64,000 bases of DNA from Escherichia coli (GCF_003334785.1 NZ_QOWV01000011.1); one strand, 5' to 3'; shown: positions 23,041 to 23,170, counted from the first letter of the stretch. The notes: generated by a model not told the origin, from the sequence alone. Translations and numbers: made by a program.

Positions 23041-23170
23041 CAGTCAGTATAAATACGCTTCGCGCACGAGTTCACAGTATTTAGGTTTACTGTCATTAAA
23101 AATACGCTTCGTGCAGAAGTTCAGAAAAATGGGGTTAGCTGTCAGCACAAATACGCTTCGCGCAAAAAAA
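23041..23170. repeat. Three phased (49-bp period) direct repeats, iteron-like
   Basis: aaatacgcttcg(c/t)gca at 23051, 23100 and 23149; first two units extend to ..agttca.. Confidence 0.7.

Follow-up and report, generated by a model that had tools for sequence, protein, structure and literature searches.

Tandem 49-bp repeats in the probable origin region of a pHW126-family replicon inside a mobilizable island of Escherichia coli

Three copies of a 49-bp direct repeat lie between a gene for a helix-turn-helix (HTH) protein and a divergent open reading frame (ORF) in a 64,000-nucleotide stretch of Escherichia coli chromosomal DNA (GCF_003334785.1, NZ_QOWV01000011.1; hereafter the window, with positions counted from its first nucleotide). 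The original prediction described them as helically phased, iteron-like repeats and suggested a plasmid-type origin remnant or a multi-site operator. According to comparisons with small plasmids and related chromosomal loci, it is strongly supported that the repeats are a non-coding cis element of an origin/control region of the pHW126/pIGMS31 family, and the region as a whole is very probably the origin/control region of a pHW126-family replicon residing inside an integrated island. As for the 49-bp units themselves, the explanation that we favour, with a probability of about 0.4, is that they are accessory hairpin modules of the single-strand-initiation type (ssi-like). The features of the region are the following.

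22026-22589, minus strand: gene for a Rep-like winged-HTH protein of 187 aa, homologous to the initiators of pHW126-family plasmids
22642-22647, minus strand: conserved TTGACA, probable −35 element of the rep promoter, formed by invariant columns of a 17-locus alignment
22854-22887, minus strand: GGTTTCTTATTTCTTTATCACTCTTTTATCTTGC, a block resembling the conserved region (CR) of the plasmids, 265-298 nt upstream of the rep ATG and almost invariant in 17 loci
22981-23019, minus strand: hairpin D, a two-step hairpin (GAAGCC..GGCTTC around GCGCAAC..GTTGCGC) with 13 predicted pairs
23036-23164, minus strand: tandem array of the 49-bp unit, 2.6 copies, detected by Tandem Repeats Finder (TRF) and autocorrelation
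23051-23066, 23100-23115 and 23149-23164: plus-strand complements of the invariant core TGCGCGAAGCGTATTT, which reads on the rep-sense (minus) strand
23235-23309, minus strand: block B, conserved, two hairpins with invariant stems
23235-23246: small hairpin of block B, CGGC-GTGA-GCCG, with a GCGNNAGC motif on the minus strand
23275-23309: large hairpin of block B, CAGCG/AGTGAGTGC..GCACTCA/CGCTG
23375-23396, plus strand: block A, conserved, adjacent mini-hairpins GGC-GTAA-GCC and GTGC-GTA-GCAC
23629-24054, plus strand: gene for a 141-aa protein of function unassigned by family, divergent from the origin region, C-terminus ...RKRL

The non-coding region between rep and the 141-aa gene spans 1,039 bp (22590-23628). 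Read in rep orientation, it consists of block A (23396-23375), block B (23309-23235), a T-run, the units (23164-23036) and hairpin D (23019-22981), followed by ~90 nt of AT-rich DNA, CR, ~200 nt, the TTGACA promoter and rep. The units are located at −476 to −574 from rep, ~180 bp distal to CR. The HTH gene and the plus-strand ORF flank the repeats as described in the original prediction, the 141-aa ORF being the only conserved plus-strand neighbour.

Initiator homologue and conserved region

Sequence homology strongly supports the identification of the 187-aa neighbour as a Rep initiator homologue of the pHW126/pIGRK/pIGMS31 family. By itself, the protein gives weak matches only, namely to HTH_36, the phage O N-terminal domain, Rep3 WH1 and a PHROG family annotated as replication initiation. 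Among plasmid initiators compared by BLASTP, the highest identity is shown by Rep of p49589CZ_2, a 2.8-kb Enterobacter plasmid (47%, E 7e-55), followed by RepM of pIGMS31 (40%, E 1e-30) and Rep of pHW126 (30%, E 7e-15). A search of 5.8 billion proteins returns homologues of ~199 aa with 44-48% identity on hundreds of 2.6-2.9-kb contigs, and some homologues carry precomputed PF13730 and PF05732 (RepL) assignments. The tblastn search against plasmids likewise places homologues on circular plasmids of 2.3-3.1 kb from Klebsiella, Enterobacter, Escherichia, Citrobacter, Serratia and Rahnella, including pIGMS31 (NC_011406) and pHW126 (NC_019295), which encode little beyond the Rep homologue and a Mob/Pre relaxase.

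The core motif GN(I/L)..FSQ..SNVS.AFK.L..K.(I/V)LI...G..Y(L/I)NS is conserved in the Rep proteins. The AlphaFold model of the 187-aa protein has a mean pLDDT of 71.5, and its confident core best matches MarR-family winged-HTH proteins in the PDB; RepM is likewise described as a MarR-like winged-HTH protein by the authors of the pIGMS31 study (bioRxiv 10.1101/2022.12.05.519187). A search of the PDB by sequence yields no solved relative. Against its relatives rep shows dN/dS values of 0.06-0.18, with dS up to 1.65, and the gene is therefore maintained by purifying selection.

The C-terminus of the 187-aa protein (22026-22046) reads ...RRRNPADGIPF; many relatives have ...DDIPF, and ...TDGIPF and ...DGIPFD also occur among them. 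The tail resembles the acidic C-terminal tip of the E. coli single-stranded DNA-binding protein (SSB), ..DDDIPF, onto which PriA, chi and DnaG, among others, dock. The SSB-tip-like tail is missing from the small-plasmid Reps of the family, as well as from island Reps of the L007/L008 type.

In pHW126-like plasmids the REP module has the order ssi-like palindrome, CR of ~20 bp, four iteron-like repeats of 20 bp with 2-bp spacers (IT1-4), inverted/direct operator repeats and rep; the palindrome is not essential, but plasmids that have lost it form multimers and reach a higher copy number (PMC6854812; bioRxiv 10.1101/2022.12.05.519187). RepM binds IT and the inverted repeats (IR) and nicks the rep-sense strand just upstream of CR, while the iterons of the family bind Rep and act as incompatibility determinants (bioRxiv 10.1101/2022.12.05.519187).

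In the window, the first 15 nt of GGTTTCTTATTTCTTTATCACTCTTTTATCTTGC match the CR of the closest plasmids, GGTTTCTTCTTTCTT, which lies at about −293. The 15-mer GGTTTCTTNTTTCTT has one occurrence in the 64 kb (expected 0.01). Each island locus and each of the 7 closest plasmid loci likewise contains it a single time, on the rep-sense strand and at about −293 to −303 from rep. As for pHW126 and pIGMS31 themselves, they have only a looser, CTTA-rich version of CR. These alignments thus strongly support the presence of the family CR in its proper place, ~300 nt upstream of rep, which is also its distance in the plasmids. A similar TTGACA upstream of rep is also found in plasmids of the family.

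Rep homology and a CR at the matching distance together argue that the repeats sit in a plasmid-type origin/control region, so that the idea of such an origin adjoining the gene of a DNA-binding protein appears right in substance. The description of this origin as a remnant, however, does not hold, because the integrase is intact, the relaxase gene and rep are present, and rep is under selection.

Shared with the REP module of pHW126, pIGRK and pIGMS31 are the homologous winged-HTH Rep (30-47% identity), the CR ~300 nt upstream of rep on the rep-sense strand, a hairpin-rich region distal to CR, the strong TTGACA before rep, a partner mobilization (MOB) module and a very low G+C content. Unlike the plasmids, the island version is chromosomal and part of a ~20-kb element with an integrase and an AlpA-like gene, its relaxase belongs to PF03432 (MobA/VirD2-like) and not to MOBV, and its Rep has the SSB-tip-like C-terminus. 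The distal region also differs: it comprises ~440 bp in the island, is unlike the plasmid ssi in sequence and contains 0-3 units of 49 bp.

The most conspicuous difference, however, concerns the four 20-22-bp iterons between CR and rep. In seven family plasmids TRF reports arrays of ~3 to 4 x 22 bp at about −215 to −130 from the rep ATG, whereas no iteron array is reported between CR and rep in the island loci. Autocorrelation at 21-22 bp in the same interval gives z ≤ 1.3 in island loci versus 2.3-8.3 in plasmids. Resemblance to the plasmid iteron core is left at one or two sites, AAAATCAAAAATTATC and AAAATCATATGATTAT (~22810-22850, AAATCA..ATTAT-like). Judged by these scans, the island version is a module of a known family with one defining feature absent. 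The 49-bp units are not iterons in the family sense, since they lie on the far side of CR, number 0-3 and have no motif in common with the rep promoter region.

Repeat array and its variation

The repeat search of the window confirms three copies at exactly 49-bp spacing. The core AAATACGCTTCG(C/T)GCA starts at 23051, 23100 and 23149 on the plus strand and is found nowhere else in the window on either strand, with up to 2 mismatches allowed. TRF reports a period of 49, 76% matches, zero indels and a score of 139; according to base autocorrelation of 23030-23175 against shuffles, z equals 9.8 at offset 49 and 6.3 at offset 98. On the rep-sense strand the core TGCGCGAAGCGTATTT is preceded by TGAACT and followed by TGACAG. 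The minus-strand consensus derived from 28 units of 13 loci (the window and 12 relatives) is TGAACT(Y)(S)-TGCGCGAAGCGTATTT-NTNN-TGACAG-NTAA. The 16-nt core that was originally quoted is indeed near-invariant in all copies, but the true unit is longer, with conserved sub-blocks, the duplex palindrome CTGTCAG among them, covering ~45 of the 49 bp.

Helical phasing, in contrast, is not borne out. At 10.5 bp per turn of B-DNA, 49 bp corresponds to 4.67 turns, and the copies therefore do not lie on a single helix face; the exact spacing simply reflects tandem duplication.

Within the array the spacers are 73-81% identical (i.e., 19-27% different) while the cores stay identical, and the core TGCGCGAAGCGTATT is unaltered in relatives at dS 0.7-1.65. 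Diverged spacers combined with unchanged cores indicate that each kept copy is constrained or homogenised. Mechanical ORFs across the repeats (22919-23215 and 23212-23370) are not conserved, their frames being broken in relatives; since the 49-nt step is also not a multiple of three, the array is non-coding.

Two small features are seen next to the array. A mini-ORF of 9 codons with AGGAGG, a 6-nt spacer and a TTG start lies just past the last repeat (23175-23215); it is present in the close relatives L003 and L004 and probably non-functional, because it is gone in L005-L008. A second small tandem repeat at 23517-23555, TATATATGAAGAATAAAA, has an 18-bp period and 2.2 copies and sits in an AT-rich stretch upstream of the promoter-like block of the 141-aa gene.

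Among the 17 loci compared, three units are found in the window, L003, L023 and L024, two units in L004-6, L020-22 and L025, and one unit in L026 and L027, while L007, L008, L028 and L029 have no recognisable unit. Wherever the unit is repeated, the spacing is exactly 49 bp. The unit-less loci still have CR, blocks A, B and D, and a rep with the identical recognition helix.

Searched against 5426 E. coli genomes, the 146-bp array gives matches in 147, at a median of one place per genome and always within this island; searches of plasmid and phage collections give zero matches, and in IMG/VR the exact core in context recurs on one contig only, which carries the same island. A dispersed repeat family, such as repetitive extragenic palindromes (REP/BIME), insertion sequence (IS) ends or miniature inverted-repeat transposable elements (MITEs), is thus ruled out; membership of an IS or REP family had been named with the original prediction as what would speak against it.

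The variation in copy number suggests another explanation, in which repetition as such has no function and one functional segment of 49 bp is multiplied and reduced again through slippage, recombination or rolling-circle initiation/termination between identical sites. Loci that are otherwise alike differ by exact 49-bp steps in having 1, 2 or 3 copies, a single copy exists in L026 and L027, and pHW126 constructs with two origins delete the intervening interval (PMC2831885). However, diverged spacers with identical cores point to copies that are constrained or homogenised and not to fresh neutral duplication. We consider this explanation improbable on its own; it is, moreover, compatible with the ssi-like interpretation of the units and not opposed to it.

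Hairpins of the distal region

The unit core forms an imperfect palindrome, TGCGC-GAA-GCGTA on the minus strand, which includes the mini-hairpin motif GCGAAGC. This motif is an "extraordinarily stable" DNA mini-hairpin, and GCGNAGC/GCGNNAGC motifs are known at the complementary-strand origins of phages G4 (CGGCGAAAGCCG), St-1 and alpha3, as well as at RSF1010 ssiA and N4 virion-polymerase promoters (PMC13037366). Within 22975-23415 (441 bp) five such motifs are present versus 0.67 expected from the rest of the window (P ~7e-4). Three of them are on the minus strand (two unit cores and CGGCGTGAGCCG of block B) and two on the plus strand (block A). One relative has CGGCGAAAGCCG, the exact 12-mer mini-hairpin of the G4 origin. 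The experimentally defined ssi regions of pIGMS31 and pHW126 contain 3 and 2 such motifs, respectively, on the rep-sense strand.

Other hairpins of the region are conserved in a similar manner. Hairpin D shows one compensatory change (CG to UA), and 4 of 4 one-sided changes in it keep a G.U pair on the rep-sense strand and would produce a mismatch on the other strand. In blocks A and B the stems are invariant and the loops variable, with one compensatory pair, in A. The bases that vary across relatives are the N positions of the motifs (GTGA/GTAA/GAAA in B and GTAA/GTGA/GGAA in A).

In the window alone, hairpin D has a G-to-A change and an extra CC (GTTACGCCCC, 23000-23014), which weaken the inner stem. 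The altered hairpin becomes complementary to block A (GGGGCGTAAGCC, 23373-23384), a complementarity that the relatives lack, and both minimum-free-energy DNA folds of the window pair D with A across ~370 nt. A long-range pairing of blocks A and B was also considered and rejected: RNAalifold proposes a 10-bp helix, but 4 of 7 sequence combinations disrupt its centre, and local hairpins account equally well for the data.

Interpretation of the 49-bp units

In the ssi-like explanation, the units would fill the distal slot in which the plasmids hold their non-essential ssi-like palindromic region, each being built round a small palindrome, TGCGCGAAGCGTA, with the GCGAAGC mini-hairpin on the rep-sense strand. 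Together with the conserved hairpins D, B and A they would make up a hairpin-rich zone of ~440 bp. After excision of the island, Rep would nick or open the origin near CR and the hairpin zone would turn single-stranded; the hairpins would then serve as single-strand initiation signals (priming, SSB-excluding) for complementary-strand synthesis and for orderly termination. The tail of Rep, ...D(D/G)IPF, may help to bring in host priming proteins. Repetition itself would probably be a by-product of tandem duplication and deletion of one functional unit; 3, 2 or 1 copies, or none that is recognisable, would suffice in relatives.

Described elements of this type, i.e., the G4-type ssi, ssiA and ssiB of RSF1010, the single-strand origins (sso) of rolling-circle plasmids and sso1 of ICEBs1, also consist of conserved non-coding hairpins by a nick site or origin. 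The GCGNAGC/GCGNNAGC mini-hairpin motifs are shared with the G4, St-1 and alpha3 origins and RSF1010 ssiA (PMC13037366). As in ssiA/ssiB, the motifs are found on both strands, and the element appears accessory and dispensable. The island region shows no sequence similarity to ssi and sso elements past the 7-12-nt motif. To our knowledge, a tandemly repeated 49-bp module is not a described feature of either.

Several observations weigh against the ssi-like explanation. Enrichment of the motif is modest, as ~1% of 441-nt windows in the same 64 kb reach 5-6 mini-hairpin motifs. DNA comparisons with the small plasmids (blastn with word size 7, nhmmer in both directions), together with BLAST and Smith-Waterman alignment, give no significant similarity between the distal blocks or units and the plasmid ssi regions, and for phage origins and collections no similarity is found beyond the 7-12-nt motif. 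Folding of the whole region barely beats shuffles (z −1.1 to −2.1). The strand signal is thin: the 4 of 4 wobble-preserving changes of hairpin D correspond to p ~0.06, two natural variants of the unit core keep wobble pairing on the plus strand and not on the rep-sense strand, and the motifs of block A lie on the plus strand. Conserved sub-blocks over ~45 bp, including CTGTCAG, would equally suit protein binding. Finally, the island has no canonical iterons, so Rep must have binding sites elsewhere, and the units are the only tandem repeats on offer for it.

The last two points also count in favour of the main rival explanation, namely that the units are iteron-like duplex binding sites for Rep, acting in origin activation, in copy control by titration or handcuffing, or in incompatibility. 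In this lineage they would have replaced the four 22-bp iterons and moved to the opposite side of CR. Like the iterons of the theta plasmids pSC101, R6K, pPS10, F and P1 and like IT1-4, the units are direct repeats upstream of an initiator gene with a core conserved in every copy, and this core is strongly constrained. They are the sole tandem direct repeats upstream of rep, the canonical slot has no 22-bp periodicity in the island loci while the plasmids show it, and iterons of the family are known both to bind Rep and to determine incompatibility; the ~45 bp of conserved sub-blocks with the CTGTCAG palindrome fit this view as well.

However, the period of 49 bp contrasts with 17-22 bp for iterons, and at 4.67 turns the units are off a single helix face. 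Their number varies from 0 to 3 among close relatives. The array lies ~180 bp distal to CR, away from rep, with no related operator repeat at the rep promoter: no related motif is found in the rep promoter/operator (22590-22700), nor in the 17-locus alignment (partly by inspection). An identical recognition helix (..SNVSRAFKELF..) is encoded in loci with one unit (L026 and L027) or no recognisable one (L007, L008, L028 and L029), all of which still have rep, CR and the remaining blocks. In plasmids whose Rep shares this recognition helix, the iterons are of the ATTATGAAAATCATAAT type, and the only ATTATGAAAATCATAAT-like sequence of the island, AAATCATATGATTAT (~22811-22829), is CR-proximal and outside the units. 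Considering both sides, we regard a function as Rep-binding iterons as a serious but somewhat unlikely alternative.

Alternatively, the units may bind some other protein, such as the 141-aa protein, the AlpA-like regulator or host IHF, Fis or DnaA, and constitute an architectural element or an operator with several sites. From E. coli to Yersinia, the non-coding region invariably has the 141-aa gene on its other side, and each unit has several conserved duplex sub-blocks. The 141-aa protein, however, has no recognisable DNA-binding domain or family, and its gene has its own conserved promoter-like block by the start, ~400 bp from the units. Unit-less lineages retain the gene nonetheless, and the unit contains no consensus IHF or DnaA site, as judged by inspection only. 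Such a role therefore seems to have a low probability.

The tandem unit size of 49 nt resembles that of type III antitoxin repeats, which raises the question of whether the array is part of a structured non-coding RNA, either a replication-control/antisense RNA or a repeat RNA of the type III antitoxin kind. Like the ToxI, CptI and TenpI arrays, it consists of tandem non-coding repeats of tens of nucleotides on a mobile element, those arrays having ~2-5 copies. Several conserved hairpins have GNRA- or GNA-type loops that vary on fixed stems, and in pIGMS31 and pIGRK promoters directed into the origin have been described (bioRxiv 10.1101/2022.12.05.519187). In contrast to type III systems, the array lacks both an endoribonuclease toxin gene downstream and a terminator ahead of the following gene, and the next plus-strand gene is 465 bp away, with its own promoter and no match to a ToxN-like family; no ToxN-, AbiEii- or CptN-like protein is encoded nearby. 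Furthermore, the intergenic region has no Rfam match at the gathering threshold or at E ≤ 10, no convincing pair of promoter and terminator brackets it, GNRA/GNA-type loops occur on opposite strands in different blocks, and RNA folding gives z values of only −1.1 and −2.1. An RNA function thus appears very improbable. A type III toxin-antitoxin or defence role was likewise rejected, as the 141-aa neighbour belongs to no family and PADLOC reports nothing relevant.

A further possibility extends the ssi-like explanation to an undescribed kind of accessory element. Tandem strand-specific mini-hairpin priming modules would be combined with an SSB-tip-mimicking Rep that recruits PriA, DnaG and chi, the number of modules tuning copy number or establishment after excision or conjugation. 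The modules would comprise the 49-bp units plus blocks B and A on opposite strands, and the host primosome proteins would be recruited onto the displaced or the transferred strand. This model is rather unlikely in our estimate. In a variant of it, the units could be repeated nick or termination sites of Rep, whose number shifts through rolling-circle initiation and termination.

As for nick sites, the unit junction AACTTCTGCGCGA, as found in relatives such as L003 (the window reads AACTTCTGCACGA at 23111-23123), agrees with the mapped RepM nick context AAGT|TCTGCTCGA of pIGMS31 (L015, 2262-2276) in 11 of 13 positions, and a GCGNAGC motif comes after a T-run in either case. According to Smith-Waterman alignment against shuffles, this resemblance is not significant (p 0.02-0.9, uncorrected), and it is a lead only.

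Island context

Gene content strongly supports the assignment of the replication module to an ssrA-integrated mobilizable island of roughly 20 kb. The tmRNA gene (ssrA) of the chromosomal window is located at 39454-39816 on the minus strand and adjoins the integrase gene. Leftwards of the integrase are cargo genes, an ankyrin-repeat protein gene, a 135-aa ORF, the PF03432 relaxase gene and genes for small lipoproteins, followed further leftwards by the 141-aa ORF, the 1,039-bp non-coding region, the 187-aa HTH gene and an AlpA/excisionase-like gene (20434-20640). An integrase at ssrA together with a relaxase, rep and an AlpA-like gene therefore identifies an integrative mobilizable island at ssrA. 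Its remaining main features are as follows.

25440-27073, minus strand: MOB module, relaxase gene 25440-26669 (PF03432) and upstream 135-aa ORF 26666-27073
38058-39816, minus strand: integration end of the island, intact integrase gene 38058-39431 (457 aa) adjoining ssrA/tmRNA 39454-39816

The original prediction also listed MobA and MobC in this element. A PF03432 relaxase is indeed present, but the 135-aa "MobC" ORF has no family match here. Just upstream of this mobC-like ORF (27170-27215, minus strand) lies an inverted repeat, GGGTATAC-N12-GGTATACC, which is a more conventional candidate for the origin of transfer (oriT) than the repeat region. An oriT role of the 49-bp repeats was rejected in view of this better candidate.

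Of 5,426 complete E. coli genomes, 183 (~3%) contain the 2.1-kb region around the array (22000-24100), at 189 places that are all chromosomal, and its relatives form a graded series from 100% to about 70% identity. The synteny of relaxase, small ORFs, 141-aa gene, non-coding region and 187-aa gene extends to Citrobacter, Superficieibacter, Phytobacter, Pseudocitrobacter, Salmonella diarizonae and Yersinia.

No family is assigned to the 141-aa protein by Pfam, NCBIfam, PHROG or PADLOC. The protein shares the ending ..S(V)VRKRL (24040-24054) with the 317-aa ankyrin-repeat protein (27275-27290). In every relative that yielded the 141-aa protein, from E. coli through to Salmonella, its RKRL end is unchanged; no ORF with this end was detected in locus L029 of Yersinia. 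The shared end may be a common C-terminal sorting or translocation signal.

According to the annotation of identical genomes, the cargo at 30368-37781 includes a NACHT-domain protein (704 aa), a RelA/SpoT-domain protein, two ParB/RepB/Spo0J-like proteins and a recombinase-family protein, and looks like a defence-type set. Parts of it are present in 1,290 E. coli genomes, far above the number that carry the rep module.

In strain FORC 064 (L001, NZ_CP022664.1, 25768-40084) two IS3-family elements split the same island, only a fragment of its integrase is left, and the ssrA site is taken by a P4-like satellite, resulting in a tandem island array. In a search for the far att end of the island in the window, 13-21 kb contained no directly repeated stretch of 12 nt or more from the ssrA end. 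The Salmonella "plasmid 132" record OX345049.1 (L002), which has a 67%-identical Rep, is a linear 3.7-kb contig that is almost unannotated. It is probably a mis-binned fragment of a similar island and was for this reason not used as plasmid evidence.

Discussion

None of the papers found to mention pHW126 or pIGMS31 describes a chromosomal or island-borne member of the family. Replicons of the pHW126 type are known only as tiny cryptic plasmids, whose mode of replication (rolling circle, theta or a combination) continues to be debated. In the present case, this module of Rep and CR is a conserved and selected part of an integrative mobilizable island, which is carried by ~3% of complete E. coli genomes and also occurs in Citrobacter, Salmonella, Yersinia and other genera. 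This suggests that these islands may replicate autonomously after excision. The island system would help to locate the binding site of an iteron-less Rep of the family, and the natural series of 0, 1, 2 or 3 units offers a way to probe the accessory, ssi-like part of this replicon family.

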